Below, in pieces: positions 1 to 61,452 of a stretch of 61,452 nucleotides of DNA. The stretch covers positions 1-61,452 of the IMG/VR virus record IMGVR_UViG_3300045996_001309, one strand, 5' to 3'. Both the position numbers and the translations under genes were made by a program. The DNA comes from a virus (lineage: Duplodnaviria > Caudoviricetes). Numbering within the stretch: the first letter of the stretch is position 1; every line of letters begins with the position of its first letter. The notes under the pieces were generated by a model. It did no database searches. It was not told where the DNA came from and saw only the letters and a list, made by a program, of their open reading frames with translations.

Positions 1-155
1 GTGACCCCGTAATGAGCCACGGATAGTAGGGATCGTGCGACCGATGCCCCCCGGCGTTAGGGCCATTACCACCTGATAGATACACCGCTCCTGATGAATT
101 GTTGACGTTGGTCCCCACCCCGCCAGGAGGTGCCAGCATATCGTGTGTCAGACCT
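1..155. repeat. Terminal direct repeat, left copy (circular genome overlap)
   Basis: Bases 1-155 match 61298-61452 except at positions 23 (a/g) and 29 (g/a). Confidence 0.97.
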
Positions 156-2044
156 GTCAAGCTGATGCTCATAGTCGGGAATGGCGCACCGAGCGTAGCA
201 TACGACGCCCCGGCACCATCTGGGCCGTTGTTCAATGCCGGGATGCGACCAGTGCTCTCATTGAGTAATCCGATCCACGCCCAATGCATCTTTCCGAGCC
301 CAGCGGCGCGGGCTTGATTCCAACTGTTTTCGTCTTGTCGCAGCCAAGCGGTAGTTGCATAAGTGGGCAACGGTCCCTGTTGCGCCGTTGTCCCGGCGTT
401 TCCGATAATGTTTCCATTTCCAATCGCTGCGCCGGGACGGTAGAGATCGGTATCGCCACCAGCGCCGCCGCCTCCGCTTACGGTAAAGGCATCAGCAGTG
501 ATGTCCAGATCATATGGCGGAATCAGCCCGGCCGCTTGCCAATAAGTACGCTCGGCTGTGGTCAACTGTGACCGCAATTCGGGGCGGGTCACTGTCCAAT
601 TTGGATTGGCTGCGTCATCTGCCGCAGAATACCAGCCCTGACGATAAGCCTGACATATTCTTCGCGTCACCGTGAGCGTGCCTGATCCGGTCGCGGTTAT
701 GTCGGCTTGCGGGTCAAACCCGGTCGCTTGCACACCTGTCGCTCCGTTAATGTCAGGCCAGAAGCGGTAAGCCGATCCGGTAATTGGCCTGATCCAATAA
801 GGCTTGTTTGCGATCAGCCCAGTCGGCAACGTTCCGGAAGACGACACCGACACGCATTCCCCTTCCGTGAAGGGCGTAGACCCCAGATCCACCGTGTCGT
901 TTGCGATGCTGATGTTGGTCCCGTTTTGGGTTACGTTGACCGGGGCGCCCCAATTACGAACTGTAGAGCCGCCGTCCTTCAGCGTCGCGAAATACGAAGT
1001 CGCATCCAGCCCGACTACATTGAGCCAGGGCTGCATTATAAATGGCATATAAGAAATGCCGTAGACGCTCCCCGAATCGGTCGGGTCTGTGTAGACATCG
1101 ACGTACCAGCGATTCCACAGATGCGCCGTGTCTTCGCCGGCAACCCGCGTGATCGTGGCTCCACCTGAATGCGCCGCAGCCGTCGAGCCACCCGCACCGC
1201 GCGTCAGAAGGTTCAGCGTCGTGCCGTTCGTTACGGATACGAGCACATACTCGCTGTCGATCTTGACCATCTCGGTGCCGCTCGCAGCAAACGCCGCCGT
1301 TGAGCCGACTGTCACGTTGCCTGTCGTGCCGCTGGTCAGCGCTCCGGTTACTGTCGTGGTCGATGGCGTGTTATCGATTGCCGCTCCGTGAACCACAAGC
1401 CCGCGACGAACCGGCCCTGTAGCGACTACCTGGACGATGCCGTCAGCGATCAGCGTATTGAGCGAGGCGGTGAACGAGCCGCTCCCGAGAACGCCGTCCT
1501 CGTAGTGGCAGATGCCATCATTCGGCACTGTCGTGTACGTATAAGCGCACGGCCGCACGTCCGTGTATTCGATCTCGAAATCGTGCGATCCAGTGATATC
1601 CGCCGTCGTGCGGTTGTCGGTTCCTGGCGTGTATGCGCTCGATCGGCGATACCATTTTACCTGCTCAGTGCCGCCGGCAGAGATCGATGGCATGAACCTT
1701 GAGACGGAAGCGTGCCGGCACGAGCCGTCGTCCCATGTCGATACATCGTCAAGCTGGAATGCCCGCTCGGTGCCGTCCGCGTCTTTCGGAACCGGGTGAT
1801 TGGCTGTCAGGCAATCCGGCACCTCGCCGCGCTTCCAGACCATGCCGAATGTGTGCGGCACGATACCGCTGGCTGATCCAGAATCGTTTGTGATGGTTGT
1901 GGTTGCACCAGCCAACAGGACATCGCCGCCGCCGCCGCTATGCCCGCCGCGCTGGAACGGCGGTTTTGTGGATGCCGGGACAGCAGCGAGCATCGCTACG
2001 CAAGTCAAGCCGGTAAGCAGCGCGCGACGAGTGATCTTATTCAC
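1..2044 (-). CDS. 5' part of a ~1062 aa exported polysaccharide lyase-like fibre-tip enzyme (continues across the junction to 60153)
   Basis: Not in the ORF track. I read the frame by hand: GTG at 2044, no stop down to base 1, and in frame with the 60153..61436 ORF. Starts MNKITRRALLTGLTCVAMLAAVPAST-KPPFQRGGHSGGGG. PHTFGMVWKRGEVP...TWDDGSCRHASVS resembles the N-terminal domain of PcRGLX/YetA-like lyases. Confidence 0.8.
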   Translation of the reverse strand, partial: MNKITRRALLTGLTCVAMLAAVPASTKPPFQRGGHSGGGGDVLLAGATTTITNDSGSASGIVPHTFGMVWKRGEVPDCLTANHPVPKDADGTERAFQLDDVSTWDDGSCRHASVSRFMPSISAGGTEQVKWYRRSSAYTPGTDNRTTADITGSHDFEIEYTDVRPCAYTYTTVPNDGICHYEDGVLGSGSFTASLNTLIADGIVQVVATGPVRRGLVVHGAAIDNTPSTTTVTGALTSGTTGNVTVGSTAAFAASGTEMVKIDSEYVLVSVTNGTTLNLLTRGAGGSTAAAHSGGATITRVAGEDTAHLWNRWYVDVYTDPTDSGSVYGISYMPFIMQPWLNVVGLDATSYFATLKDGGSTVRNWGAPVNVTQNGTNISIANDTVDLGSTPFTEGECVSVSSSGTLPTGLIANKPYWIRPITGSAYRFWPDINGATGVQATGFDPQADITATGSGTLTVTRRICQAYRQGWYSAADDAANPNWTVTRPELRSQLTTAERTYWQAAGLIPPYDLDITADAFTVSGGGGAGGDTDLYRPGAAIGNGNIIGNAGTTAQQGPLPTYATTAWLRQDENSWNQARAAGLGKMHWAWIGLLNESTGRIPALNNGPDGAGASYATLGAPFPTMSISLTGLTHDMLAPPGGVGTNVNNSSGAVYLSGGNGPNAGGHRSHDPYYPWLITGS

Positions 2045-4262
2045 AAACAACACTCGTGTCTCCCGTTGCGTTAATGATGACCCCGGTGATGTATGGTATT
2101 CCATCGAGGAACAGCACGGTTTTATTCGTCAGAGAACCACCATCAGGGGTCACGTCGCACGAAGTTGGAACCAAACCGCCCTGCATCCGGCGGAACGCGA
2201 TATCCGTCGTCATCGTCGATTGCGCGCCGGCATTGGGGCCGGTTGGCTTTGTGATGTACTGCCGGATCGTCGCGCCTGAAAGATGCGCCTTGCCCGTCGT
2301 GTTGAGTCGGCCGCGAGCATTAATATCAACCGTATCGCCAGAGACGCTGGCGACGTTAATGATCTCAGCGTCAGCGGTTCCTTCGTCGATAACGAAATAA
2401 AAATTCACCGAACTGGCAAATGTCACTGTAGAAAACGCGGCGCCGCTCGCGACGGTGAAGGTTCCTGTTGTGCTTTCGTCTATGCCGGAAGTGAGCGTCG
2501 TCGTCGGGGAAGTTGGCGACAGCCCCATCCAAGCATTACCAACCGTGAATTCGAAAGCGCTTGCCGTGTCTGCTGTTATGGTCCAGGTGAACCCGGCATT
2601 GACGCAGCCCTGTGGATCGCCATCATAGATGTTCGCCGAGTCGCGTGTTGCGGTTCCGGGGTCGTCATCGATCGAGCTGTTTGAGAAAGCTGGATAGGCA
2701 AGATCGAGCTGGAACTGCGACTTGCTGTAAGCGACGCCGACCATCGCCCCCGATCCGTCCCGATCGATCGGACCCATAGTCGATGGGTTATCGTGATTTG
2801 CCATAGACCAACAAAAAGCGTGGCCGCGCCGCGCGTCCTGAAAAGCGTCTTTTGCCGTGATCTGCGATTGCCAATTCGAGTGTTGGTCGTCTTTGCCGAT
2901 GGCCCATATCGAGACAGGGAGATCGGTGCCTGGATCGGATGCAATAAAGGTCGGCAAGTCGGCATAGCCGCCAGTGCCGCCGAATGTCGTGCCGTCGTCC
3001 ATCAGAACGCTAGATGCCGTCGTGCCAAGGGTGGATGGAGCTGCCGCGACCGTCGCCTTGAACGGCATCGTCGCCGCCCAGGTAAGCCCCGCCCAACCAG
3101 CGCTGTTGCGCAGATCCATCCGCCATATTGGATATGTCCACCACCCGGCGGACACCCGCACGACGCCCGGATCAAATGTGCGGATACTGTCTATCGCGGC
3201 CCACGCACCCATTGATTGACCGACATGGTGAACTTGATTGGCATCCAGGCCGTAGTGATCGATTGTCCAGGCCAGCAGCCGCTCGTTGCGTTTTGCGGTC
3301 CCGCGATACAATCTGTTCGCCGAGCCGACTAATGCATTAGGTGTCATACCTAACCCCTGGTGGAACGTCTCGATCGTGCCGTCCGCATCCAACGGGTCGT
3401 ACACGCTGTCTCTGATGCGAATAACCAGCGGGCCGCTCAGGCTTAAGAAGGTGCCGGTTCCACCAACACCGTCTTCAGTCACGCCGAACATCGACTTCGT
3501 GCCGTCCTGCCAGCCCTCGGCGGGTATGCCAAAGCTCTCCCAAATATCGCCACGGGTGCAACTCACGGTCCCAGCACAACTACCGGGAGATGTGGATGCG
3601 TGCGCGACCCAGATAAGCGGCTTGCCTGCGGGGCTTGTTACTCTGCCGGCCGCCTCTGCTTGATCCGCCGACGCGACAGCCAGGATCGGTTGTGGTGTCG
3701 CGACGCTCTCGGAGATCGGGCCGGCTGAACCGATGTAGCTCAGGCTGCCGTCACTCGTATCGGTCGAGACAACCGCGTAATAGGCATTTGCGGTGCCGAG
3801 CGCGGTATAGACTTGCATCCCGGTAAAGGCATCGAGCATTGCGCCGGCATCGGTCAATTTCGACCGGGGTCGCGTGCCGTTCTGCCGATAGGTCTGGAGG
3901 TAGGGATTTTCTGTGCTGGCGGCCGGATCGCCGCCGGCAAGCTGTGCCGAGTTGTTTGGGATATAACTCGCGATCAGCGTTGCGCTGGTGTAGTTGCCCG
4001 ACGTGATCGGAGATGTCGAGCGGTAGACACGGTAGCGTGTACTGGCGCCTCCTGCGCCATCCGTTCCGACATCATCCCATGTGACAATGGTCTGCCCGTC
4101 CTGGTACTGAGCACACAGCGTCGGGACAGAGGGATCGCACGCTTGTGCCGACCCGCTGCCGCCGCCGCTATGTCCACCGCGCTGGAACGGTGGTTTCGCA
4201 TGGGCGACAGCAACGGCGACGCCGATAACCGCCGCTGTCGCAAGGAATCGTTTCATCGCCAT
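2037..4262 (-). CDS. Exported alpha/beta-hydrolase (esterase-like) fibre-tip protein
   Basis: Sec-type signal ending AVAHA. GQSMG nucleophile elbow, with candidate Asp (GKDD) and His (ANHD). Late RGRLNTTGKAHLSGATI module. Confidence 0.75.
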   Translation of the reverse strand: MAMKRFLATAAVIGVAVAVAHAKPPFQRGGHSGGGSGSAQACDPSVPTLCAQYQDGQTIVTWDDVGTDGAGGASTRYRVYRSTSPITSGNYTSATLIASYIPNNSAQLAGGDPAASTENPYLQTYRQNGTRPRSKLTDAGAMLDAFTGMQVYTALGTANAYYAVVSTDTSDGSLSYIGSAGPISESVATPQPILAVASADQAEAAGRVTSPAGKPLIWVAHASTSPGSCAGTVSCTRGDIWESFGIPAEGWQDGTKSMFGVTEDGVGGTGTFLSLSGPLVIRIRDSVYDPLDADGTIETFHQGLGMTPNALVGSANRLYRGTAKRNERLLAWTIDHYGLDANQVHHVGQSMGAWAAIDSIRTFDPGVVRVSAGWWTYPIWRMDLRNSAGWAGLTWAATMPFKATVAAAPSTLGTTASSVLMDDGTTFGGTGGYADLPTFIASDPGTDLPVSIWAIGKDDQHSNWQSQITAKDAFQDARRGHAFCWSMANHDNPSTMGPIDRDGSGAMVGVAYSKSQFQLDLAYPAFSNSSIDDDPGTATRDSANIYDGDPQGCVNAGFTWTITADTASAFEFTVGNAWMGLSPTSPTTTLTSGIDESTTGTFTVASGAAFSTVTFASSVNFYFVIDEGTADAEIINVASVSGDTVDINARGRLNTTGKAHLSGATIRQYITKPTGPNAGAQSTMTTDIAFRRMQGGLVPTSCDVTPDGGSLTNKTVLFLDGIPYITGVIINATGDTSVVCE

Positions 4263-4269
4263 TCCGGCA

Positions 4270-5541
4270 TCACTTGTTAGCTAGGTAGCTTATTGCGGGA
4301 GCGGATGTCGTAGCCGGGTTGGTGCTGTCTGGATCATCGGCCGTCTGGACCCTATCGTTGTCGTTTACGGCAACTGACATCGCGCATTCTACCTCGGTTG
4401 CGTCTTCATCTAGCTGACACGTAGCTACCTGAACACCGTTGACTCTTGTGCGGTAGATACGATGCTTGCCTGATGCGGCTGCGCCGGGCGCTTGCTGGAT
4501 CTTTATCCGTATTTTTGTCAGTGTCATCGCGCCAACGATGGTCTCGGCGTCAGCCGGCGTTGCGCTACCTGCCAATCCCCCACCCGTCAACGGATAATAA
4601 GTAATCGCTGTTGATGAGTTAACAGTGCCTAGGTTATCTTTCATAAAGATGAAAGATCCCGTTGTCGTTGGGCGGAAACGTGCCCCAAAAGTCGCCGTCG
4701 CGGATGCCGGCACGTTTACATCGTGTGGATTTGCTTCAAATTGTATGTCATCGCCGGCCACAACTGTAAACGAGTTGACCAGATCAGAATTGTCTGTTGC
4801 GGCTCCCGTTATTGTCGTTGTCAAGGCAGTTGTTGCGGCCCCCTTATCTACCGTGTAGGCGTAGCTTGCCGACCCGCCGGGCGCGTTCGACTTGACGTAG
4901 AACTTGTCTATTGTTCCGCCATCCGGAAGCGCGTTGATCCGGCGGTTCGCTGGCGTGTTAACGGTCGCGTTCGAGAATGGGGTAACGGCTTGCGTCACTG
5001 TAGTCGAGTATGTCACACCTTGCGCCGGAATAATCGTGTCTCCCGCTGTCGTTGGAACAAATGTTAGGGCAATGGTCATTAACGAATTAGTTGGTCCGCT
5101 AACCGGCTTGGTTATCAGAGTCCCGCGCTGTCCGGCGGTTATGGCAAGACTCAGCCCCTCAGCCTCGCAACCATTGGCGGCGTTGGTTATTTGACACGTA
5201 ACCGCCGTGTCTACCCCGTTGATGCGCAAGACAATATCCCAGGTATTACCAGCGCCGGGGAGGGTCATAGCGTATGCGCGAATAGCCGTGATCTGCCCCG
5301 CCACGGGAAAAATCATGGACTCAAACTCGGTGCCGGAGGCGGTCGCCGAATATCCCACTGGCAAGAACCTATCAGCCGCTCCGGACACTAGCGATGAGCT
5401 GGTGGTGACAAGCTCCTGCCCGCCGGTTACTGCCGGCGCGGCGAATCGATAGGAATTGATGAGCACATTGGCGGACGCCTGTCCCGCAAGCGCACAAGCC
5501 AGCGCGAAGGCAACCGCAAGGCTGGCGGTTCTCAACAACAT
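4270..5541 (-). CDS. Exported three-domain fibre adaptor/branching protein
   Basis: Signal peptide ending GQASA, mature start NVLINSYRF, then three diverged ~125 aa beta-rich repeats. Confidence 0.65.
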   Translation of the reverse strand: MLLRTASLAVAFALACALAGQASANVLINSYRFAAPAVTGGQELVTTSSSLVSGAADRFLPVGYSATASGTEFESMIFPVAGQITAIRAYAMTLPGAGNTWDIVLRINGVDTAVTCQITNAANGCEAEGLSLAITAGQRGTLITKPVSGPTNSLMTIALTFVPTTAGDTIIPAQGVTYSTTVTQAVTPFSNATVNTPANRRINALPDGGTIDKFYVKSNAPGGSASYAYTVDKGAATTALTTTITGAATDNSDLVNSFTVVAGDDIQFEANPHDVNVPASATATFGARFRPTTTGSFIFMKDNLGTVNSSTAITYYPLTGGGLAGSATPADAETIVGAMTLTKIRIKIQQAPGAAASGKHRIYRTRVNGVQVATCQLDEDATEVECAMSVAVNDNDRVQTADDPDSTNPATTSAPAISYLANK

Positions 5542-5554: not shown

Positions 5555-7237
5555 TTATGCGCAAGTTCCGATTATCAGAACTTTCAGCCCCCGTGCGCCT
5601 GTACCAGCCGCGTCGATGTCCATCGTGATTTCGGCATCGTCCGCTATGGCGCTGTCGGAAATGACGGCAGGAGTCGCTGCCGTCGTGCTGGTCTTTTCAC
5701 TGGCGTCAATGCTGAGCTTTGTGGAAATTATCGATGATCCCGCCTCGTTGATATCGACAGTCACGAGGCCAGAGCTGCTGATTGTCGCGAGGCTTGAGCG
5801 CACTGCGGTAACGGTTAGGGCACACGGCGAGCGAAAAGTTACCTTTGCCGTTCCCGTTGTTAGATTTGTCGTTTCGTCCGACAGCGCGACCTGGATGCGC
5901 TCGATCGCCGGGTCGAGGTTCGAGGCAACTGCGGCACGAAAGTTAGAGCCGTCTCCCGATACGAACGCTTTCTTCCCCTTGGACAACCGTAGGGTCGCAG
6001 CGAGATCGATCGTCTCGGCACCGTTTGGATCGATCGTGCAGCTAAGGGCGTCGCACTCGATGTAGACGCCAAAGCCGTTGCCAAGCGTCGCGGCAGCCGT
6101 CAGAGGTATTGTCACCGCGCCAGCATTGGTTAGGCGAACGGTTTCATTCGCGTCGCCGGCAACGATCGTGCGGCTCGTGGTGGAGTCCGTGTTTACAGTC
6201 TCCGAAAGAGACAGCGTGCCAGAGGTCATCGCAAGACCGCTGCCGAGCGTTACCTCGTTAAAGGCACCGGCATTGTCATAAATTATGCTGCCGTCCGTGA
6301 CGCCAGAAAGATCGGCACCGCTGGGCGTTGCCCACGTCCCGTCGCCTCGCCAGAACGTGCTGCTAGACGCGCTCGTGCCGCTGTTTAGGTTGGCAACCGG
6401 GAGGTTGCCTGTTACGCCGGTTGAAAGGGGCAACCCGGTTGCGTTGGTTAGTACGCCGCTTGCAGGAGTACCGAGAGCCGGCGTCACGAGTGTGGGCGAA
6501 GTGCCGAAGACAAGTGCGCCTGTCCCCGTTTCCCCGGTGACGGCCGCCGCCAAGTTTGCCGTCGATGGCGTCCCCAGGAATGTCCCCACGCCAGTGCCAA
6601 GGCCCGAAACGCCTGTCGTTATCGGAAGACCTGTGGCATTGGTCAGCACCAGTGCAGACGGTGTTCCCAGGTCTGGGGTCGTCAATGTTGGGCTAGTGCC
6701 GAAAACCAGCGCTCCCGATCCCGTCTCTCCAGTGACGGCGGACGCCAAATTCACGCTAGACGGGGTGCCAAGCCATGTGTCAACCGCCGTGCCCAAGCCG
6801 GTCAGCCCCGCGATCGGGAGACCTGTGGCATTGGTCAATGTTAGTGCGGACGGTGTTCCTAGAGCCGGTGTAACCAGCGTCGGCGAAGTCCCAAACACCA
6901 ATGCCCCAGAGCCGGTTTCATTGGTCACGGCTGCCGCGACGTTCGCACTCGTCGGAGTCGCGAGCATTGTGGCGATGCCGGTGGCCGGCGTGATTGCGCC
7001 AAAATTACCGCCGCCCGCATTAGTCTGGAGATCGTTGGTACTGCCGGCAGGCGTACCGCCGCCCCCGCCTGCTCCACAAGCCGACCCCGTACCGGAGACC
7101 GCGCCCGTGGTATCAACCTGCAAGCACTGCGTCGATCCAGTGATGTAGTCGAGAATAAGATCGGCCTCAGCTCTCGGCGAGAAGGCAAGCGTCGTCAGCG
7201 CCAGCGCAACCGCGCTCGCGTAATTAAATGCTCTCAT
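5555..7237 (-). CDS. Exported fibre protein with three ~61 aa repeats and C-terminal adaptor domains
   Basis: Likely start is ATG 7237 ([25 protein letters not shown]) after a [23 protein letters not shown] repeats and a C-terminal [19 protein letters not shown]...GLKVLIIG domain, both typical of phage fibres. Confidence 0.8.
6400..6985 (-). repeat. Three tandem ~185 bp coding repeats in the fibre gene
   Basis: Three copies of TP(S/T)xxNxAxAVTxETG(S/T)[31 protein letters not shown]. Confidence 0.9.
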
Positions 7238-7238
7238 T

Positions 7239-7457
7239 TTAATCTCCGATGACGACGTTGCCGACTGCGGACACCCGCACCGTTCCGGTGGCTGAAATGA
7301 CAATGTTTCCGATAGAGGGAGGCGGTGGGGGTGGATTGCCTGTGCCGCCGCCTTTGCCCCGCGATTCACTGGCGCCGAAGCTAAAACCGAAGCCTTGCGC
7401 AAGCGCTGGGCCGGTGAGCAGAGACAGCACGAAGATAATCGCGAGAGGAATTTTCAT
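7239..7457 (-). CDS. Small exported head-spike anchor/linker peptide
   Basis: Signal ending GPALA, then QGFGFSFG, a Gly linker, a Pro6 run and a short beta tail. Lies directly after the spike-base gene. Confidence 0.65.
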
Positions 7458-7461
7458 TGCG

Positions 7462-7821
7462 TTATCTCAAGGCGGTTACGTGCGTACACGTTGTGCCCGT
7501 AGCGAGTAGCCGCTTTATCGAATAAGGATAGGACAAGCCGGGCTGCACGTTAGGGAGCGTGACCGCGCCGGTAGTCAACGAGTCCGCCGAGAAAACCACC
7601 GCGATATTGCACGCCGCCGCGTCGCCAATGTGCAGCCCGCGCGTCGCGGTGATCGTGGTCGAATCCCCCGGTGTCAGCAGCGTGGCTGATCGCCCCTGGT
7701 TAAGAGTTGCCTGACCACTCGGCGCCGGCTGCGCCAGAGCAGGAACGACGGCAAGCGCCGCGCACAAAAAAACCGCCAGAAAGGCGGCCTCGCGAGCTAC
7801 GCGAGCTGTACGATTAAGCAT
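7462..7821 (-). CDS. Head spike base protein (RcGTA Rcc01079-like) with an added signal peptide
   Basis: TPGDS..TRGLHIG...VTLPNVQPG..PYSIKRLLATGTT matches my recollection of the spike-base family. Hydrophobic N-terminus ends VPALA. Confidence 0.7.
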   Translation of the reverse strand: MLNRTARVAREAAFLAVFLCAALAVVPALAQPAPSGQATLNQGRSATLLTPGDSTTITATRGLHIGDAAACNIAVVFSADSLTTGAVTLPNVQPGLSYPYSIKRLLATGTTCTHVTALR

Positions 7822-7888: not shown

Positions 7889-8185
7889 GTGACAAACGAC
7901 GCTCCCAAGCCGGCCCCGCTTGAGATCACCATCAGGTTCGATCCGCAGCGTGTGCGGGCAATGCTGCGAAACCTTCGATCCTTAGCGCTCACGGTCGCGG
8001 CCGCTGGTGGCGCTGTTATCTACGCGCTGCGTCTGCCGCTACTATTCTTGGCGACACTCGCTTTCGCGGCCGTCTTGGCAGGCGTAACAGGCTCAGGAAG
8101 ATCCCTCGGCTTATTCGCTGCCGTGTGGCTGATCTACGGTGTATTTTGGCTTAAAGCTAGGTACTCGCCGCTGATCCGCGACTAG
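7889..8185 (+). CDS. Small membrane protein (moron, opposite strand)
   Basis: Three hydrophobic stretches. Lone plus-strand gene in the virion operon. Confidence 0.6.
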   Translation: MTNDAPKPAPLEITIRFDPQRVRAMLRNLRSLALTVAAAGGAVIYALRLPLLFLATLAFAAVLAGVTGSGRSLGLFAAVWLIYGVFWLKARYSPLIRD

Positions 8186-11100
8186 CGCGTGCCGACTGAC
8201 CGTTGAACCCCTTCCTCAGCGGCGTCGAACAGGTGCCGAAAACCAATCGTGTTTTGTAAAGGCAGTATGCGTCGAGCGGCGTTTATATCACCTTCGGTAG
8301 GATCACCCGTTGCCGCGCCACGAACAGCGCGACCAGCATCCTCGATTAACCCGCCCGTGGGGCCAGTGACAGCGCCGAGCACGCCGCGACTCGAATAGCG
8401 CGATGTCGGCGCTTCTCCGATAAAGCGCTGCAACCCGACTGCGCCGCCAGTAGCTTTTTCCATCGTATTGTGCGCGTCGAACAGCCATCCGGTAAGGCCC
8501 GAGCGATCGACGCCCTCGCGCAGCCATTGCGCCATCCCGTCCGCCGTCGTCGGGTCGGGCAGATCCTTCTTATTTGGATTGTCGTTGAGCTGGTGCTTGA
8601 CGTAATACGTCATCATCCCGAGCGCTGTCATCAACAGCACACCGTTTAGCGTCGCCATGTCGCGACGCTGTAACCCACTCAGCAGCACTCGCTGCGTCGA
8701 TGACATCGCAAAACCCTTGAACTGCCCAAGCAGCCTGCCGGTATTGCCCCAGGCGCCGGACATGATGAGCGGGCGCTCCATACCCGGCGTGACGATGATC
8801 TCGTCCACCTCTTTGGCAAGCGCCCCACGAAACGCATCTACTGCCGCTTGGTCGTCCCATGCTGCTGTATTTGCCCACCAAACGCCGCCATCGGTTTTCT
8901 CGCCGTGCGCCTTAAACTGAGCCGTGATGCGCTCGGCCTCGTCTTGTCCGATTCCCAGGCGAGCAAGCCGGGTTGTCTCGGCCTTTGAGACGCCGCTGCC
9001 GGCAGCCAGTTTCTCAACCGCTTGCAATGTGCGGGTCTGCGAAACGACACCAGCAAACTGCTTCATGGCGCTATTCCACGGCGCCATTAGGGTGGCTAAC
9101 CCGAACTTACGCGACATGCCTTGTAGACCGCGCTCGTATTTCGACCAGCGCCCGTAATCATCGAGCATGTCGGCCATCGCCATTGCCCGCGTGTCGAGCA
9201 CCATGTCAAGCGCGGTGCCGGCGAGCTGCGTCTCCTTTCCTGCTAAACGAAACTTCTTAAAGTTGCTTAGCATCGGCGCGAGCCCGTCGCGCGCAACTCG
9301 CGAGATGCCGTGAACCATGACGGCACGGCCAACATCGGAAAACGCCGAGATCGTCATGCCGCCAAGCAGACGCAGATAATTCAAATCACGAATTACGTGG
9401 TACGCGCGGTTAGCCAAGCCGTTTGGATTGTCGGGCAGACCATAGGTGCCACGGAGACGATCACGCACAGCGGCAATGTCGCGAATGTCGGCGCGCATCT
9501 GGGCATCGAGCTTCTTTAACTCAGCCTCACTCTTGCCTTGACGCAGTATTTCGTAATCAGAAAGGATCTTCTTGATCTGATCTTCCATATCAACCCGGCC
9601 GAACTTCTCGGTCAGGGTCACGTCGGAGGCCATCGTGCGGTTATAGAGACGCGCGATCACGCGCACGTCGCTCTCAAGAATGTCCTCGATCATCTCGTCG
9701 GGGATTTTGAACGCGCGATGCGCTAGCGGACCACGAGGCGGCGGTCCATCACTCGGGCGCCCGCGAGGCGATGGCGTCTCGACATCGTAGGGTAGTCGGC
9801 CGATCGGCGTGCTAAGGATGCGATCGATAATCTGCTTCGCGATATCATTAAGGTCTTCTTCTTCCTGGCGAGTGTTCGCTCTCGCAATTGCCCGAGCCGC
9901 CTTCGACACCGGCTTGTCGGCCTCCTTTAGTCGGCCCTTACCCGGTTCACGAGTCGCTTCTTTCTCCGCACGGCGCTTCAGAGCGCTCTTGGCCTTCATG
10001 CTGGTGTTGCCTTCCCAGCTCGAAACAAGATCCTCGATTTCGGCGCGGATCGCCTCCAGCCGGGCCTGATCCTTATCAAGCCGCCCACCGATCTCGTCTA
10101 TAATACCCTCAGTGCCGCTTGCCTGATCGGATAGCGTATTGATACGCCCGCGAATGCGGCTTTCAAACACGGCGCCGCCACGAGCAGCCCCGCCCTTGCG
10201 GCGCATCTCCTCTTTGAGATCGCCGCGTAGGCGCCGAAGCTCGCGACGGTATGGCCGGATAAGTTTCCCGATTTCAGTCCGAGCTTGCACTAATCCGGCG
10301 CGTTCCTCGGGGGAGAGGCCGCTCCCTTCGCGAGCAAGCCGCTGCACGGCCTTTACGAAATCATCGCCGCCGGCAATAACGTCTACCAGAGTTTCCCCGT
10401 CGCGCAGGCCCGCCAGGGCGTCTTCCGCGACCGCTCGCTGCTGTGGTGTAAACCGAGCCTCGATATTCCTAATACTCGCGCGAATCTGGTCTATCGGTTG
10501 CGTCATCGCAGCTGAACGCTTGAACGCAAAGGCGTTCAGCCGAGAGACTTCTTCGCGCCGGATCTCCTGTTCACGCAACTTACGCGAGCGCAATTCTATT
10601 TTCGCTTCCCGCTTACGCACCCTGCCGGAAAGCTCCTTCTGCTCCGTGATTAGGTCAGAGACCTTGCCTCGGATCGTGTCTTTCTTCGCCTGCTCGTCGG
10701 CCAGCCATCCCGCAAATCTTTGGGTAATCTCAGGACGCTTTGCGATGATCCTCTCGTTATTGTAGACCCGCATAAAATACGACAGGGCAGTATCGGTCGA
10801 CACGTCCTCATCAAGGAGCCCGGCCTTGATCGCCCGCTCTTTCCACGGATCGAACACCCGATCACGCATCAGCTTAGCTGCTTGCGCAACCTCGGGAACT
10901 TCATGTTGATCCTCGCGACGCATCGCGCGACCGACTTGTTCAGCAAACTCGTCATAGGACAGCTTGCCGGCACGATCGCGCACAAGATCACCGACAGCGA
11001 GCCGGGTCACGCTGCCAATGCCTCGATCCCCGCCGGTACGGTAGCGCACAAACAGATCGTCGAGTCCGCCCAACGCCTCCGCGAGCGGAGCACTCGCCTG

Positions 11101-12834
11101 CCGAAGGTCAGTCTCGACGGCGCGCGGCGATGGTATTCCTTCCTCGTTCTTTCGCAGCCCGACTGGCAGCTCGGCAAGCTCCTGTATCAGGTGGCGCGAT
11201 TCCAATGATGGCGAGAACATCGGCCGCAAGTTTGGTGCGGTCTGCGCGAGCGCCCGTCCCATCCCGAGCGCACTTTGCAGGGTTTCCTGCTCAAGGGTTG
11301 TGTCACGAGCCGCCGCCGCGCCGGCCGATCCGCCACGAGCGGAAATGCCTGTTTCTAGCGCCTGTCGGCGAGCAATATCGTCCAGAGCTTGTAGCGATTC
11401 CGGTCCAAGCGTTATGTCAGGTGTCATGCTTTGCGCCGGTACGGGAGATGGGTTACGTTGAACATCTTCCCCGTTCTTCTTTAAGACCTCAATGCGCGCC
11501 TCGTCAAAAATGACGTAATTACGTGTACCCGATTTAGCGGCGCGAGATTCTTCATCAAAAAATCGCAAACCGTGCAATCCGGCACGAGCCAAGGCTTCTG
11601 ACGCTTCCTGAAACCCCCCGCGCCCTCCCCGATTAAGTCCTCGGCGCAACGCCCAATAAACATCTTCTCCCGTGGAATTAGGATCGAGAGCGCGCTCTCG
11701 GCTCCACGCTCTCCCGAAAGAATCACGAAATCCCCATTTGGGGATGGAATCCACGGCTTTGGCAACAGCCGCCTGTACTGCGGGTGATTGCTGCCCTAAA
11801 GGTAATTCCAAATCCATAATATCCGCAACGTGCAGATTCACCTCATATAAAGAGCCACCATCTCTATAGGTAGATGCAACATCGGGTGATTCTGCAAAGT
11901 ACATACCATAACCGTATGTTTGATTCCCTTCTCCAGTGCCAATCAGAGCTTTGCGGAATTTGGTCACATCGTGACGCGATCCGTGATACGCGGTTATCGG
12001 AGCCGCCACCCGTTCCTGCGGCTCGGGAAAATCTCCCCGATTAAGGTACGATCGCAGAACCCCCCCTGATGGTGCAGCGCTTGGTTGCGTAACGGAAGCA
12101 TCCTCGTCCACGTAGCCGCGTTCAATCGCGCCAAGCTCGCGCCCATAGTCTTCACTCTCACGCATCACGCGGCTGGAAAATTCTTCCAACCCACGCGCCA
12201 CGCCCTGCGCCACAGGACGGCTCAGTGCCCCGATAGCGCCACCTAGTGCGCCGCCGATGACGGTCGATGCAGCCACGTTTACCGCGCTCTCGCTCCACGG
12301 GCGCGTTACTTGTGTCGCCTGAAGTCCGGCTTCCTGCGCAGCGGTGCCGACGGCCGACGCAGCTCCGATCCGTGCGGCGCCTGCCAACGCTCGACCAGTG
12401 CGCGTCACGGCCATGAATTGCCCGCCAACAGGAATTACCGTCGTCGGGTCTAGTAATGTTGCCGCGCCAGAAGCAAGCAATCCCATGACGCCGCCATTGG
12501 CCTGTATGTCAGCGCGGCGACGCTCAGCGTCGATGCGAGCCTTCGTGGCAAGGACATCATCCTCGCTGTTGTCTCCAAGGAAGGCGCGCGCGTGATCTTC
12601 GTATCCGCGAATTCTCTCGCCATCCTGCCCAAACGGGTCAAAGCTCGGATCGAACGGCGCGCGGGCAGGCTGCGTCAGCGCTTCTGCCGCTGAGCCGACC
12701 ACGTTATTGCGTAGCATTTCCGTGCCGAACAGCGTCGAGAACGGAGCTGCCGGGGCGCTGGTGGCAAGAGGCTCGGCTAGTTGCGGGACGAGACCAGACA
12801 CCGGAACCTGATCATCGTCGGCCAGGATCGGCAT
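8182..12834 (-). CDS. Large internal virion (ejection) protein, T7 gp16-like position, with an ART-like insert
   Basis: 1550 aa helical protein, last of the ejection trio. GQFKGFAM-type C-terminal region. YHGS...GEGNQTYGYGMYFAE insert. Confidence 0.8.
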   Translation of the reverse strand: MPILADDDQVPVSGLVPQLAEPLATSAPAAPFSTLFGTEMLRNNVVGSAAEALTQPARAPFDPSFDPFGQDGERIRGYEDHARAFLGDNSEDDVLATKARIDAERRRADIQANGGVMGLLASGAATLLDPTTVIPVGGQFMAVTRTGRALAGAARIGAASAVGTAAQEAGLQATQVTRPWSESAVNVAASTVIGGALGGAIGALSRPVAQGVARGLEEFSSRVMRESEDYGRELGAIERGYVDEDASVTQPSAAPSGGVLRSYLNRGDFPEPQERVAAPITAYHGSRHDVTKFRKALIGTGEGNQTYGYGMYFAESPDVASTYRDGGSLYEVNLHVADIMDLELPLGQQSPAVQAAVAKAVDSIPKWGFRDSFGRAWSRERALDPNSTGEDVYWALRRGLNRGGRGGFQEASEALARAGLHGLRFFDEESRAAKSGTRNYVIFDEARIEVLKKNGEDVQRNPSPVPAQSMTPDITLGPESLQALDDIARRQALETGISARGGSAGAAAARDTTLEQETLQSALGMGRALAQTAPNLRPMFSPSLESRHLIQELAELPVGLRKNEEGIPSPRAVETDLRQASAPLAEALGGLDDLFVRYRTGGDRGIGSVTRLAVGDLVRDRAGKLSYDEFAEQVGRAMRREDQHEVPEVAQAAKLMRDRVFDPWKERAIKAGLLDEDVSTDTALSYFMRVYNNERIIAKRPEITQRFAGWLADEQAKKDTIRGKVSDLITEQKELSGRVRKREAKIELRSRKLREQEIRREEVSRLNAFAFKRSAAMTQPIDQIRASIRNIEARFTPQQRAVAEDALAGLRDGETLVDVIAGGDDFVKAVQRLAREGSGLSPEERAGLVQARTEIGKLIRPYRRELRRLRGDLKEEMRRKGGAARGGAVFESRIRGRINTLSDQASGTEGIIDEIGGRLDKDQARLEAIRAEIEDLVSSWEGNTSMKAKSALKRRAEKEATREPGKGRLKEADKPVSKAARAIARANTRQEEEDLNDIAKQIIDRILSTPIGRLPYDVETPSPRGRPSDGPPPRGPLAHRAFKIPDEMIEDILESDVRVIARLYNRTMASDVTLTEKFGRVDMEDQIKKILSDYEILRQGKSEAELKKLDAQMRADIRDIAAVRDRLRGTYGLPDNPNGLANRAYHVIRDLNYLRLLGGMTISAFSDVGRAVMVHGISRVARDGLAPMLSNFKKFRLAGKETQLAGTALDMVLDTRAMAMADMLDDYGRWSKYERGLQGMSRKFGLATLMAPWNSAMKQFAGVVSQTRTLQAVEKLAAGSGVSKAETTRLARLGIGQDEAERITAQFKAHGEKTDGGVWWANTAAWDDQAAVDAFRGALAKEVDEIIVTPGMERPLIMSGAWGNTGRLLGQFKGFAMSSTQRVLLSGLQRRDMATLNGVLLMTALGMMTYYVKHQLNDNPNKKDLPDPTTADGMAQWLREGVDRSGLTGWLFDAHNTMEKATGGAVGLQRFIGEAPTSRYSSRGVLGAVTGPTGGLIEDAGRAVRGAATGDPTEGDINAARRILPLQNTIGFRHLFDAAEEGVQRSVGTR

Positions 12835-15587
12835 CAGCGCGCCATCTCATCGCTCTGGATCAGCGGGCTTTGAGTGGGAGGAATCTCGCCCCGCCGCAAT
12901 GCGCGCATCTCATCAAGCGTGCGCCGCCGCCCTTCCTGCCGACGCTTGTATTCCGCACTCGCTTCCCAGCTTGGTGCCCAGCGAAATTGACGATCCCAAC
13001 TACCTTGTTGGTTTTTCAAGTACACTTCATATGCTGGGCGGCCATCTGGGGCTGGCTTGTCGCTCGGCGCTAAAAGCAGGCGATCCGGAGTAACGGGTTC
13101 AGCCGTCATCGCGTTTGCCGTGAGTTCACCGATAAGCTGCTCGTTCATCCAGTCAGCATTCTCATCTTCGGAAAGTGCCGGAACGCCGTAGAATTTCTCG
13201 GGAGAGAATTTAGAATAGCGCGCACCCTCGCCGCCGACCCGCGTGCGTCCCCAGACGCGGCTGATCGTGTCCATCGCCCGGCTGCGCGCAGCATCCAAAT
13301 CGCCGGTTGCGATATACTCGCTCTTCGCCAACTCTCCGAACTCAGCCATCATCACTGGATCAACACTCGGGTCATGCCCCCATGTGTCTTTTTTGTCTTC
13401 AAGCCAACGGCGATCACTGCGCTCGCGGATTGTGCTGTCTTTGCCGCGCTCGTCGTCATAAGCCGCCTCGCGAGCCGCGCTCGTCGTTTTATCGACCTTT
13501 AGGCTCTCGACTGCGCGCTGCACCGCGATTTCTGGAGGCATGCCTTTGCGGTTGTTCGACAAGATTAACTCGCCGAAACGCATATCCTTTTCATCGCCGA
13601 TTTCACCGACAAGCTGCGGATTGGCGACACGCAGTTGCTCGATCGCATTCGCTGCCATCAGCGCCTGTTCCGGCCGACCGGAATGCAACCCGCCCCGGAT
13701 CATCTTTTGCAGCCCGTCCGGCACCAACCCATATCGAGCCGAGTATGCGATGGCGTTGGGGATCGCTTCTTCCGGCTTCCACGACGCCGATTCCTGGGCG
13801 TAATGCAGGTTAAGACCGAGCCGATCCTCCTTTGATTTCGGGTCCAGAGCCGGCCCGCCCGCGCCAGCCGAAGCGGCACGGTGCATCAGGCGGGAGACCT
13901 TAATCCGCTCCTCTTCCAGCTTAGCTTCGGCCTTGGCGCGTTGCTCCTGTATCCTGTCGAGCGTCATAATTCCCTGACGCTCCGCTTCTGGCGAGATATC
14001 TCCGACCCTACGTCGCTCTCTGATTTCCGCTTCCGTTATCTCCTCTCGGCTCGCCCGCAGGAGGATCTCGTTATTCGCCTCCGATTGCTCAAACTCAAAC
14101 TGGCGCTTGCTTTTCTCGACCCGACCAATGGCGATATTCTTGATTTCTTCCGGAGCATCCGACGCTTGAATGCGATCGATCTGCCCCTTCCAATCGGGGC
14201 GAGCTGGGGCTTCAGAAAGAGCCCCCTCGTCCAGCGGTATCGGCGCTCCGCTTGCGGGAGCTGCGTCAATCTCTGCGGATAGCGCGGCGTCTGTTGTTTC
14301 GTCAATGCGAGACGCAACTTGCGTAGGCCGCCCTCCCCCCATTTTTCGAGCGGTCGATTGCCGCAATCCGCCAGCAGTCATCCGCGCAAGTTGCGGGTTA
14401 GCGTCGATCACGTTCTCTGAAAAGAGATCGCGCACTGGCGTATCCGGGGCCGCCCTTAACACCTTTTCGGCACCAGCCGGTCCTAAGAAATGCGCCAGAT
14501 AGATTGCACCAGAATCTGTTGGGAGACCTTTCTCAGCCAGAAAGGATTTATTTTTTTCGGCATAAGCTGCCGTCATCCGGCGAGACAGGACGGGATTGTT
14601 TCGTAACGCCAACAATTCCGCGTCAGATTTCCCTGAAGCTACCTCGGGGGCTTCACCCTTGACCATTGACAGCCAAGTGGAATCTATAAATTGCCCCAAT
14701 CCGGTGGCAGACGAACGAGGGTTTTTGGCATCGGCACGGCCAGCGCTCTCAATCCCGATAATCCGATCAACTAAATCGCCACCGCCCTGGGTCCGCTCGT
14801 ACAAGCTGCGCCCAAGCTCCTGGTTAAGCTCTGGCCTGATGCCAGAACGTAGTCGGTTGAGCGTCGTCGGATCAAGGACGGGTGCAACTTCGTTGAGGAA
14901 TTTGTCAGCTTCGGCTACACGGTTATTCGAACTCAGCCACGCGAACCGCTCGACCGCAATCTTCTCTTGAGACTTCCTGATGAGCGCATCGGTCTTGGTC
15001 TTGCCGTGGATTGGCTCCAGATTGGCAAGAAGCTGCCCGAGAGATTCGCCTGCCGCACGCTGATGCCCCGGATCGTCCGCGCGAGCGGCGAGCTGAATAA
15101 GATCATCCGCTTTTTGCAGTACGCCCGCTTCCCAACGATCTTGCCAAATCCCAAGCTGCTTGGTATCAGCTAGGGCTTGCGCCCGAGATGCGCGTTCTTG
15201 CGTTCGAGCGGCCCATAAGGTTCGCGCTTCCGGATCAGTGATCCCGGCCCCGGCGCGGCTGACAAACTCCGGTATTTGCTGCGTGAGCGCCGTCAGTTTT
15301 TCTGGGTCGGTTTCGTTCTTTGCGGCAGCTTCCCAACGAATGAAATTGCCGGTGGCGTCAGCATCGGCGAGCGCCATCTCGATTCGGCTCCGCTTCAGCT
15401 TCTCGCGCTCTGCCTCTCGATTCTGATCCGCTGCTATAGCAAACCCTGTCGCGCCGAGCCGTTGCGTCTCGCGCCCAGCATCGACCAGCGCCGCCGCAGC
15501 GGGGTCACTCGTCGGATACTGCGGCAACGGTGTCGTGCTGCGCGGGTCGTTAAACCCGAGATCGGCGAACGTCGGGATGCGCGCCAT
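12834..15587 (-). CDS. Internal virion protein with a lytic transglycosylase-like domain
   Basis: IIGIESAG..AKNPRSSATGLGQFIDSTW and YLAHFLGPAGA motifs, plus synteny. Confidence 0.8.
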   Translation of the reverse strand: MARIPTFADLGFNDPRSTTPLPQYPTSDPAAAALVDAGRETQRLGATGFAIAADQNREAEREKLKRSRIEMALADADATGNFIRWEAAAKNETDPEKLTALTQQIPEFVSRAGAGITDPEARTLWAARTQERASRAQALADTKQLGIWQDRWEAGVLQKADDLIQLAARADDPGHQRAAGESLGQLLANLEPIHGKTKTDALIRKSQEKIAVERFAWLSSNNRVAEADKFLNEVAPVLDPTTLNRLRSGIRPELNQELGRSLYERTQGGGDLVDRIIGIESAGRADAKNPRSSATGLGQFIDSTWLSMVKGEAPEVASGKSDAELLALRNNPVLSRRMTAAYAEKNKSFLAEKGLPTDSGAIYLAHFLGPAGAEKVLRAAPDTPVRDLFSENVIDANPQLARMTAGGLRQSTARKMGGGRPTQVASRIDETTDAALSAEIDAAPASGAPIPLDEGALSEAPARPDWKGQIDRIQASDAPEEIKNIAIGRVEKSKRQFEFEQSEANNEILLRASREEITEAEIRERRRVGDISPEAERQGIMTLDRIQEQRAKAEAKLEEERIKVSRLMHRAASAGAGGPALDPKSKEDRLGLNLHYAQESASWKPEEAIPNAIAYSARYGLVPDGLQKMIRGGLHSGRPEQALMAANAIEQLRVANPQLVGEIGDEKDMRFGELILSNNRKGMPPEIAVQRAVESLKVDKTTSAAREAAYDDERGKDSTIRERSDRRWLEDKKDTWGHDPSVDPVMMAEFGELAKSEYIATGDLDAARSRAMDTISRVWGRTRVGGEGARYSKFSPEKFYGVPALSEDENADWMNEQLIGELTANAMTAEPVTPDRLLLAPSDKPAPDGRPAYEVYLKNQQGSWDRQFRWAPSWEASAEYKRRQEGRRRTLDEMRALRRGEIPPTQSPLIQSDEMAR

Positions 15588-25433: not shown

Positions 25434-25748
25434 CTAGGTTGTTGAACGCCTTTGGCGTACTCGCTCAGCGGTAGATATCCGACGTTCGATAGGAGACGGA
25501 CCCTCCGGTATCGGCGAGCGCACGATGTCTTGAATCTGTTGACCTACGTAGTGCCGACCGTTCCACCAATTCGCCGTAGCCACATCCGCCGGCTGACATG
25601 CCGACAAGCGGTTGATTCCGCAAAGCTGCTCAATTATGAATGAGCACGCCATCTTGTGCGCCTCGTCCGCGAATAGCGCCTTCAGCGCGTGTCGCATAAC
25701 ATCGGAGCACTCGACACGGGCAAGGGCTTCAGTTTCTCGAAGGGTCAT
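25434..25748 (-). CDS. Bbp19-like small protein
   Basis: Directly follows the portal gene. NGRHYVGQQI resembles the EGRR.VG..I motif. Confidence 0.6.
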   Translation of the reverse strand: MTLRETEALARVECSDVMRHALKALFADEAHKMACSFIIEQLCGINRLSACQPADVATANWWNGRHYVGQQIQDIVRSPIPEGPSPIERRISTAERVRQRRSTT

Positions 25749-60152: not shown

Positions 60153-61452
60153 CTACTCGATCGTCGGGTGGTCGCAGTCGATGCCCCACTTCGATTTCGC
60201 CGAAAACGAGGCCGCCGTAAGCCCGGTGCGGGCATTCACCTCGGTGATCGGGGCGTCCAGATCACCGCGCGCAGCAAGTGCGCGAGCCCAGCACATAATC
60301 ATTCGGTCCTGGGTAATATACGTATCTTCCACCGCCCCGCCCGCGACATACCCGCTCGCAGGATTGGCTTGAGGCCGCATGACCCAAGCGTTCCCCGCCG
60401 ATGCGGTCGCCACCGGGATCACTGCCCCGCCCGGCGTGCAGGCCAGCCCCGAAATGTTTAATCCGCTAGGACTGCGAATATAAAACCATCGCGAACCACC
60501 ACACGCATTCCCAGCGTCATCAGGCTTAAACTCGGGAGGCCCGCTGTACGTTGTCCCTGGCATAGCTGTTATAAACACCGGCGATGATATCATGATCGGG
60601 TCATTGTCGCTCATGTTCATATCAGTCCACATGGAACTGAAGGTGGCGGCAGCGCTGCCGCCTCCAGTAAATGCCAGCGTCCGGCTTCCACCAAACCCGC
60701 CAATCCCAACATCATTAAAAGATGTCGCAAAAGCTGTCTGCCACGCTCCGTTCCATGTGGTTTGAATCAACGCGGCTGAGTAAGGGTTCGCGAAGTTACT
60801 GTGATACTCTATTGCGCAGTAGAAGGGGCTTATCCATGACCCACCATAGCAACCAGTCTGCCAATTTGTCGTCCTGGTAACAAGATCATCAAATCTAGCA
60901 TCGCGGGTCATACCCTTGCCCCACAGCCACGCGACAGTTCCCCATCGTGTCGTCAGACCATCGGCGCCTTGAGAGTTCAGGTCCATCGATCCAATCGTAT
61001 CCTGCCCTGCCGATTGGATCGCTTGCACGTCTTCCCAGAAATCCAAGTTCTCCATCAGGTAGTCTTCAATCAATCCCTTCTCAGGGTTTGCCGAGCTACC
61101 CATAACAGACGCACTTATAACGCCCTTTAGAGCGCCGGGTGTACGCGCATCCGATCCGAAGATATACGTGGCATAATAAATCCTCCCGGTCCCGCCGATC
61201 TGCTTTATCCGACCCGAAGTGAAGCCGTTATCAGGGTATGCGGTATAGGCAACAACTGTAGTGTTGGCGTCTATATACAGTCCGTCGAGATAAGCTCGTG
61301 ACCCCGTAATGAGCCACGGGTAGTAAGGATCGTGCGACCGATGCCCCCCGGCGTTAGGGCCATTACCACCTGATAGATACACCGCTCCTGATGAATTGTT
61401 GACGTTGGTCCCCACCCCGCCAGGAGGTGCCAGCATATCGTGTGTCAGACCT
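60153..61452 (-). CDS. 3' part of the junction-spanning lyase-like protein starting at 2044
   Basis: In frame across the terminal repeat. H.SHDPYYPWLITGSRAYLDGL resembles the helical catalytic region of this lyase-like family. Confidence 0.8.
   Translation of the reverse strand, partial: GLTHDMLAPPGGVGTNVNNSSGAVYLSGGNGPNAGGHRSHDPYYPWLITGSRAYLDGLYIDANTTVVAYTAYPDNGFTSGRIKQIGGTGRIYYATYIFGSDARTPGALKGVISASVMGSSANPEKGLIEDYLMENLDFWEDVQAIQSAGQDTIGSMDLNSQGADGLTTRWGTVAWLWGKGMTRDARFDDLVTRTTNWQTGCYGGSWISPFYCAIEYHSNFANPYSAALIQTTWNGAWQTAFATSFNDVGIGGFGGSRTLAFTGGGSAAATFSSMWTDMNMSDNDPIMISSPVFITAMPGTTYSGPPEFKPDDAGNACGGSRWFYIRSPSGLNISGLACTPGGAVIPVATASAGNAWVMRPQANPASGYVAGGAVEDTYITQDRMIMCWARALAARGDLDAPITEVNARTGLTAASFSAKSKWGIDCDHPTIE
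61298..61452. repeat. Terminal direct repeat, right copy
   Basis: Matches 1-155 with two mismatches. Confidence 0.97.

Follow-up and report, generated by a model that had tools for sequence, protein, structure and literature searches.

The DNA analysed here is the whole IMG/VR virus record IMGVR_UViG_3300045996_001309, a stretch of 61,452 bp referred to below as the window. Its first 155 bases recur at its end with 99% identity, and the window is thus a complete genome bounded by terminal repeats. Six consecutive minus-strand genes follow those of the internal virion proteins, in the slot of the T7-like tail fibre, and all six begin with a signal-peptide-like sequence. Two of them, encoding an esterase-like protein and a second protein, carry an identical peptide of 13 amino acids (aa), here called the tag, at the predicted mature N-terminus. 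The features of this cassette are listed below (ORF, open reading frame); signal peptides were read by eye, directly from the translations.

7462..7821, minus strand: 119-aa signal-peptide protein, first gene of the cassette, matching phrog_12296 'tail fiber protein' (expectation value, E, 6e-6)
7239..7457, minus strand: 72-aa signal-peptide protein, Gly-rich, with poly-Pro
5555..7237, minus strand: 560-aa fibre with a signal peptide, an N-terminal Cys loop and ~38-aa repeats
4270..5541, minus strand: 423-aa signal-peptide protein of a virus-specific family
2037..4262, minus strand: ORF of the 741-aa esterase-like protein
4197..4262, minus strand: its Sec-type signal peptide, MAMKRFLATAAVIGVAVAVAHA, with AxA before the tag, as read from the sequence
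4158..4196, minus strand: tag copy 1, KPPFQRGGHSGGG, residues 23-35 of the esterase-like protein
2037..4157, minus strand: mature esterase-like protein
2104->2, continued at 61297-60153, minus strand: ORF of the second tagged protein
1967..2044, minus strand: its twin-arginine-type signal peptide, ..NKITRRALLTGL..AVPAST
1928..1966, minus strand: tag copy 2, the same 13 residues as copy 1
2..1927, minus strand: mature second protein, first part, continuing across the terminal repeat
60153..61297, minus strand: C-terminal part of the second protein, beyond the 155-bp terminal repeat
1-155 and 61298-61452: direct terminal repeat of 155 bp (99% identity), within the gene of the second tagged protein

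The presence of the same 13 residues behind dissimilar signal peptides in two proteins, first noticed in a sequence-only reading of the window, was confirmed at 4196-4158 and 1966-1928. A degenerate 27-base back-translation of KPPFQRGGH found exactly two sites in the window, the two tag copies, and none of 100 dinucleotide-preserving shuffles gave two or more pattern matches. When 12,330 ORF segments from 103 loci and the window were searched locally with a profile of the tag, only the 10 training sequences and one related locus (L106, described below) were found, the next match having an E of 0.52. Chance and low complexity were rejected as the origin of the tag on the basis of the shuffles and this profile search, the repeated tag being genuine and far outside what chance would give. 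The profile gave no support for a third tag in the window, such as one at the vaguely similar mature end of the 72-aa protein. The two 39-base copies are identical at 36 of 39 positions, while the codons flanking them are unrelated on both sides. The three differences (CCA/CCG, GGT/GGC, and GGA/GGG) are all synonymous; with 24.8% of the possible single changes in this stretch being synonymous, three out of three has a P of 0.015.

The mature esterase-like protein comprises a Gly-rich linker, a Cys loop (C42, C50), and an alpha/beta-hydrolase core with the motif GQSMG (S350), together with a domain of ~85 aa in common with the second protein and a C-terminal Cys pair (C702, C740). In all 13 esterase sequences compared, G348, S350, and G352 of the GQSMG motif and the four cysteines are invariant. 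A structural model of moderate quality (mean predicted local distance difference test, pLDDT, 68.8) matched S9 peptidases, esterase D, and carboxylesterases by Foldseek (probability 1.0, E down to 8e-7); its residues 1-37 have a pLDDT of 25-44, a low value that suits a succession of signal peptide, linear motif, and linker. The first tagged protein is, as judged from its nucleophile elbow and modelled fold, an alpha/beta-hydrolase and a putative serine esterase. No family name was obtained for it from Pfam or PHROGs, a PDB sequence search gave nothing significant, and a word-based search with residues 1-40 returned only the query itself at E<=10. By tblastn, neither the esterase nor the second protein matched any of 50,697 phage records.

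The second protein had been taken as cut off at base 2 of the window; its ORF in fact goes on through the terminal repeat into 61297-60153, and the joined frame is open for 1064 codons (~1064 aa). Because the repeat lies inside the coding sequence, the gene is split in two by gene callers on the linear record. The start codon candidates are GTG 2044 (overlapping the esterase stop), TTG 2050, GTG 2053, and ATG 2104, and the residues ..NKITRRALLTGLTCVAMLAAVPAST, of the twin-arginine type, directly precede the K of the tag. The label 'lyase-like', given in the sequence-only reading, is backed only by a single PcRGLX_1st Pfam match (E 0.0066-0.0069; 16.6-16.7 bits, below the cut-off of 22.1), seen in one of six family members. 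With no significant match to the domains of that family, assignment of this protein as a PcRGLX-like polysaccharide lyase is unsupported. PDB sequence searches with the second protein, its homologue P0029, and an 888-aa family described below gave nothing taken as significant; WD40-repeat matches (best E 2.6e-8), which cover only residues ~216-335 of the second protein, were not accepted as a family assignment. These residues overlap the ~85-aa stretch common with the esterase, which in the second protein also matches phage tail-fibre PHROGs weakly (E 0.001-0.003). The model of the second protein was unusable (pLDDT 36.5), and an Atlas search with it gave no usable match. Its sole database homologue, P0029, carries RPFPMRFGG behind a Sec-type leader. 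The two tagged enzymes had been called unrelated; they are different proteins, but the ~85-aa stretch (35% identity, E 7e-5) is common to both.

The esterase was compared with its homologues, 28 sequences including the query, of which the other 27 are 37-53% identical to it and two are cut at the N-terminus. The strict motif [KRQN][PLQ]xFx[RKQLS][GA]G lies at the predicted +1 position after an AxA-type site in 14 of the 26 with N-termini (41-53% identity), variants were read by eye in five more (P0008, P0016, P0023, P0026, and P0027), and four were ambiguous. In 16 homologue junctions read by eye, the tag starts just after the predicted cleavage site. P0019, only 43-44% identical to the window esterase overall, retains an identical KPPFQRGG. 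The tag is thus kept across diverged homologues, which sets aside its interpretation as a relic of recent duplication. Neither tag nor Gly linker was found in 15 distant cellular homologues (26-31% identity; L006-L010 and L013-L022) from Planctomycetes, Myxococcota, and other groups, a weak partial match (L023) being left out of the count; in all 15, the signal peptide runs directly into the first beta domain. Because the cellular homologues have neither, the tag is, by this comparison, an add-on of the phage-borne clade.

Related cassettes were present on the viral contig L004, the metagenome contig L005, and three contigs (L011, L012, and L106) of one Alphaproteobacteria metagenome-assembled genome (MAG). 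The following tags were read from them.

L004: esterase RPLFLRAGHP; 888-aa Tat (twin-arginine) protein RPLFLRAGHP
L005: esterase QLVFKRGGGP; 888-aa family RPPFARGGKG
L011: esterase RPPFLRGGTP; PhoD-like phosphodiesterase RMQFPALRGGTP; 891-aa protein RVQFPALRGGTP
L106: esterase as a broken remnant only; PhoD-like protein RMSIPALRGGVP; 888-aa family RPPFARGSSP

The PhoD-like protein of L011 (8574-9965) matched PF09423 (E 1e-12; 48.3 bits against a cut-off of 27), PF16655 (E 3.3e-7; 31.2 against 30), and phrog_13624 'hydrolase' (E 7.8e-63). With both domains above the Pfam cut-off, the third tagged family is assigned as a PhoD-like phosphatase. Tag-bearing families accordingly number at least four: the esterase, the second protein with P0029, the 888-aa family (L004, L005, L011, and L106), and the PhoD-like proteins (L011 and L106). 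An alignment of 10 cassette N-termini showed F, R, and one G of the tag to be invariant, A to occupy position -1 in nine, and the tag to begin at +1 in all 10, in agreement with the earlier placing of the tag at the predicted mature N-terminus. On this sequence evidence the tag is portable, being found on at least four protein families. The three cassette copies of the MAG (G001) are in different states. That of L011 is complete, with three tagged enzymes and, upstream of the fibre, a gene that is TnpB-like by its N-terminal sequence alone; that of L012 lies between portal and prohead protease and retains only a 69-aa remnant of the 888-aa family; in L106 the esterase is fragmented.

Selection on the peptide was also examined within these genomes. 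The two tags of L004 differ by three synonymous and no non-synonymous changes, and the L011 pair (RMQFPALRGGTP and RVQFPALRGGTP) by three synonymous and one non-synonymous. Pooling the window, L004, and L011 (35 codons) gave nine synonymous differences and one non-synonymous difference (binomial P 9e-5), against an expectation of ~28% synonymous among random changes. Tags of different genomes are unlike at several residues, and the peptide motif persists although its codons differ widely. By these codon comparisons, selection acts on the peptide and not on the DNA, as had been proposed from the window pair. Since silent sites drifted while the peptide held, the identity is not merely that of a fresh gene conversion.

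The tag might instead work mainly at the DNA level, as a short 5' homology patch for the swapping of enzyme modules or for gene conversion, the peptide itself having no role. The near-identity of the two window copies within unrelated flanks would suit such a patch, as would the mosaic and partly decayed state of the cassettes (the esterase remnant of L106 and the 888-aa family remnant of L012), and modules are known to be exchanged at the conserved 5' ends of tailspike genes. The excess of synonymous differences, the persistence of the motif between genomes despite differing codons, and its fixed place at +1 of the cleavage site make this explanation very improbable. A recombination role alongside the peptide function may exist, but it could not account for everything.

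Consistent with export, a basic n-region, a hydrophobic h-region, and small residues at -3 and -1 are found in the esterase, the fibre, and the 423-, 72-, and 119-aa proteins, as in Sec signal peptides. The Tat motif S/T-R-R-x-F/L-L is present in the second protein, the 888-aa family, and the PhoD-like proteins, in the forms ITRRALL (window), LTRRGLL (L004), LTRRALL (L005), LSRRRFL and ITRRRVL (L011), and MTRRRFL and LTRRTLL (L106). No member of the 888-aa family has lost the twin-arginine motif, nor has either of the PhoD-like proteins seen; PhoD itself is known as a classical substrate of Tat export. A Cys pair is found near the mature N-terminus of the fibres, and the cassette leaders are unrelated in sequence, as is usual for signal peptides. 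From the kept twin-arginine motif, the invariant esterase cysteines, the fibre Cys pair, and the unrelated leaders, we infer that the cassette proteins are exported, with cleavage predicted from the signal-peptide sequences.

The very N-terminal place of the tag beside a flexible linker would also suit a removable segment, that is, a protease or maturation site, an inhibitory pro-segment, or a device tuning export, and it is unusual for basic residues to follow a Sec cleavage site directly, which suggests a specific need. Such a processing or control function is considered very unlikely. Unrelated enzyme folds would not have one inhibitory mechanism in common, no protease gene is common to the cassette loci, the cellular homologues are exported without a tag, and the resemblance of tags within a genome and their difference between genomes fit a co-evolving binding partner better.

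The sequence-only reading had proposed an upstream adaptor and suggested co-folding of the tag with the products of 4270-5541 and 5555-7237. Each of the four loci with a visible upstream flank (the window, L004, L011, and L012) has a member of the 5555-7237 fibre family directly upstream of its tagged genes, and this repeat fibre is the only exported protein common to them. The 423-aa protein has a homologue among the related loci only in L011, that is, it occurs in two of the four loci, and is thus not a universal partner; no homologues of the 119- and 72-aa proteins were found in the related loci. The adaptor proposal is accordingly narrowed to the 560-aa signal-peptide fibre, which by this gene arrangement is the best candidate partner. 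Neither the fibre nor the 423-aa protein was assigned to a family by Pfam or PHROGs. Co-folding of esterase residues 23-55 with the mature fibre and the mature 423-aa protein gave a score of 0.00 (mark 0.32), which is evidence neither way.

In IMG/VR, the fibre repeat matches at least 500 stretches, and 80 of the loci were retrieved. Most of these encode classical tail-attachment N-termini with no signal peptide, seven show signal-peptide-like starts, and no tag was found in any of the 80. The C-terminal domain of the fibre also occurs in cultured phages in proteins that have no signal peptide, such as a 234-aa protein of Sphingomonas phage Carli. The C-terminus of the gp16-like internal virion protein and the 423-aa family found no relatives when used as baits in IMG/VR. 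Consecutive fibre-module genes with signal-peptide-like starts were seen in L029 (5904-12256), L033 (5016-11347), L093 (8283-15531), and L092 (7162-11296), which are unrelated viral contigs with only the fibre repeat in common; L029 has six such genes, and two signal-peptide proteins of L092 are alike at the mature N-terminal region (46% identity over 195 columns, signal peptides included). Exported fibre modules may, on these readings, form a wider, undescribed class.

Whether the tag is a wider host signal was assessed in cellular genomes. In the 5.4-Mb MAG with the three cassettes, the tag profile gave five matches at E<=1.4e-5, all in cassette loci; beyond these, E rose to 0.1, and signal peptides were absent from the three best borderline matches. 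Of 401 sampled genomes of the class, the cassette-bearing MAG was the only one with a match at E<=0.001. Against 1.84 billion representative proteins, a scale at which a 34-position profile is weak, five matches at E<=0.001 were obtained: the cassette proteins P0032 and P0034, the unrelated repeat proteins P0031 and P0033, and P0035. A pattern search recommended in the sequence-only reading, run as an exact degenerate DNA pattern for KPPFQRGGH in IMG/VR, gave 0 matches. Because all matches at E<=0.001 in the MAG and the 401 genomes lie in cassette loci, the tag is probably not a general host sorting signal.

These results bear on the possibility that the tag addresses the enzymes to a component of the host envelope, so that they are retained on, or passed through, the outer membrane or cell wall as free glycan-modifying enzymes. 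Short disordered N-terminal epitopes of this kind include TonB/TolB boxes and the N-terminal secretion segment of curli CsgA. The Tat motif and conserved cysteines make the cassette proteins look truly exported, the cassette occurs in different phage backbones, seemingly independent of one virion design, and the differences between the tags of different genomes could track different hosts. A Tat-exported tailspike-fold enzyme that trims exopolysaccharide, WceF, is known (PMC7949094). The tag is found on no cellular protein of the candidate host genome nor in the 400 sampled genomes of the class, however, and a host pathway recognising a motif confined to cassettes would have no substrates of its own. 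Furthermore, folded Tat substrates could not use a narrow channel for unfolded chains, and the ever-present neighbouring signal-peptide fibre would be left unexplained. We regard this possibility as unlikely.

The explanation favoured here is that the tag is a modular N-terminal docking peptide, unmasked by signal peptidase, that loads different enzymes onto one partner; we hold it at about even chances of being correct. The docking (anchor) peptide would span 10-13 residues. Each tagged protein would be made with a Sec or Tat signal peptide, and signal peptidase would cut after AxA, leaving the tag as a free N-terminus, joined to the enzyme through a flexible Gly/Ala-rich linker. Several enzymes of one phage, bearing the same or nearly the same tag, would attach to one common partner, most likely the signal-peptide-bearing fibre encoded directly upstream. 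The loaded enzymes would be the alpha/beta-hydrolase esterase, two further large families, and the PhoD-like phosphodiesterase, and the outcome would be an exported complex of fibre and enzymes acting on host surface polysaccharide. Export, cleavage, binding, the partner, and the choice between a virion-bound and a free envelope complex are all proposals drawn from translated sequence and gene order.

The docking explanation is supported by selection on the peptide, its +1 position, its nature as a portable add-on, its confinement to these cassettes in the genomes searched, and the like-within and unlike-between pattern among genomes, which is the pattern of a peptide co-evolving with a genome-specific partner. 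The plug-in docking peptide of the sequence-only reading is to this extent upheld in its position, conservation, portability, and within-genome likeness, while its binding and its adaptor still depend on inference. Several observations weigh against docking. Three of the 26 esterase homologues (P0011, P0013, and P0025) have no tag, their signal peptide leading directly to the Cys loop. Tag identity within a genome is not universal, as the pairs in L005 and L106 differ and L011 has two tag types, and the five or six genomic contexts are too few to establish co-variation with a partner. Cleavage and export were read from sequence, the partner was picked from gene neighbourhood only, and binding is a proposal; Pfam and PHROGs showed no docking domain of a known kind, T4gp10-like or other, in the fibre or in the 423-aa protein. 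The fibre and esterase of L012 lie between portal and prohead protease, which is awkward for one fixed site in the virion. In favour of the virion, the cassette occupies the tail-fibre slot, after the internal virion proteins, of two podovirus-like genomes (the window and L004).

Tailed-phage particles are thought to assemble in the cytoplasm. A more tentative proposal, which we consider rather unlikely, is that the whole host-recognition module of this phage lineage is built outside this compartment, its fibre and enzymes being exported, oxidised, and joined in the periplasm via N-terminal peptides exposed by cleavage. The complex may then join virions at lysis, once holin lesions have let the compartments mix, or it may serve as a free, cellulosome-like depolymerase complex on the envelope. 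That exported receptor-binding modules are possibly wider is hinted at by the runs of signal-peptide fibre genes in L029, L033, L092, and L093.

The remainder of the window agrees with a podovirus. The gene order on the minus strand is that of a T7-like podovirus, and the nearest cultured phages are remote, the best tail tubular B matches being 23-28% identical. The other features are given below.

28702-30225, minus strand: large terminase
25748-27451, minus strand: portal
23141-23995, minus strand: major head protein
19345-22335, minus strand: tail tubular A homologue (gp11-like), 996 aa, of which only the first ~184 residues match phrog_394
16607-19342, minus strand: tail tubular B homologue
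15588-16241, minus strand: internal virion protein
12834-15587, minus strand: internal virion protein with transglycosylase
8182-12834, minus strand: internal virion protein with ART-PolyVal domain (gp16-like)
7889-8185, plus strand: lone 98-aa ORF with hydrophobic segments, between the gp16-like gene and the signal-peptide cassette
31473-34370, minus strand: low-GC (0.49-0.54) three-gene cluster adjoining the terminase
50503-51255: helix-turn-helix and S24-peptidase repressor
57009-57467, plus strand: ~150-aa protein near the cassette or lysis region, also at L004 15200-15664, L005 ~7180-7488, and L011 17205-17687
57718-58386: phage lysozyme
59286-59678, minus strand: phage-encoded response-regulator receiver domain (PF00072, E 1.3e-8, 35.4 bits against a cut-off of 30.2)
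59675-60043: 122-aa protein with a hydrophobic segment, between the second tagged protein and the receiver-domain gene

Other candidate fibres in the window, which also weigh against a fixed virion site for the cassette, are the long tail tubular A homologue, the other ~800 residues of which could be a built-in fibre, and a tailspike-like protein of the 31473-34370 cluster. This 400-aa protein has a pectate-lyase fold and no N-terminal anchor domain, and the cluster also encodes a 333-aa protein and a 223-aa signal-peptide protein; it may be a second, recently gained receptor-binding set. The receiver-domain gene at 59286-59678 is two genes downstream of the second tagged protein. The ~150-aa protein is 35-48% identical across the four loci and lies on the opposite strand, with neither a signal peptide nor a family assignment. 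No family match was found for the 98-aa ORF at 7889-8185.

Compared with known systems, the cassette fibre resembles ordinary phage tail fibres in its ~38-aa repeat and, in some of them, in its C-terminal domain, but most of these have no signal peptide and none of the 80 loci is tagged. WceF of Pantoea stewartii (PMC7949094), the exopolysaccharide-trimming bacterial enzyme named above, is likewise a tailspike-related glycan-modifying enzyme with a Tat signal peptide, acting outside the cytoplasm. It differs in being chromosomal, within an exopolysaccharide gene cluster, and the available text of that report describes no N-terminal tag or partner fibre. With this precedent, a free exported role is plausible.

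The cohesin-dockerin system, to which the tag had been likened, is similar as a concept, in that secreted enzymes of different families are loaded on a common exported scaffold via a small portable module. A dockerin is a folded calcium-binding domain of ~70 residues, usually C-terminal, whereas the tag is a linear N-terminal motif of 10-13 residues. No dockerin or cohesin Pfam domain was found in the cassette proteins. The likeness holds only in concept, and a nearer precedent exists in the docking peptides of podoviruses.

These podovirus peptides (K1-5/K1E/SP6, RBP2, a receptor-binding protein, of KP32 and KP34, and gp63.1-gp66 of G7C) are the nearest known systems. In K1-5, secondary receptor-binding proteins dock on the adaptor gp37 via N-terminal peptides of 7 and 11 residues, and in KP32 a 29-residue peptide of RBP2 docks on the T4gp10-like branching domain of RBP1; deletion of the KP32 peptide stops incorporation, and its fusion to a foreign enzyme loads that enzyme (PMC6872550, PMC13352976). 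As far as the available text of these reports goes, both those systems and the present one have a short, conserved, group-specific N-terminal peptide, unrelated to the catalytic part, on exchangeable polysaccharide-degrading enzymes encoded in the T7-like tail-fibre slot. Here, too, a conserved N-terminal peptide was found on enzyme-bearing proteins, separate from the catalytic part. The differences are that the tag stands behind a cleavable Sec or Tat signal peptide and would be exposed only after export, that the candidate partner itself has a signal peptide and no branching domain detected by Pfam or PHROGs, and that virion attachment is putative. K1-5, as described in those texts, uses two different peptides, whereas the same peptide occurs here on two enzymes within three genomes.

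Searches of the open-access literature, supplements aside, found no account of phage fibres or spikes with a docking tag behind a signal peptide. A docking-type peptide behind export signals would thus represent a new form of the podovirus N-terminal docking peptides. Such peptides are handles for re-targeting phages by swapping receptor-binding enzymes, and, if the docking explanation is true, a peptide of 10-13 residues that serves four or more enzyme families would add a new and compact one. Of wider interest are the export signals carried by a whole receptor-binding module, that is, by all six tail-fibre-slot genes here and by the related-locus cassette genes whose N-termini were read. This suggests that either phages deploy exported multi-enzyme complexes against the surface sugars of their own host or some receptor-binding proteins mature outside the cytoplasm.

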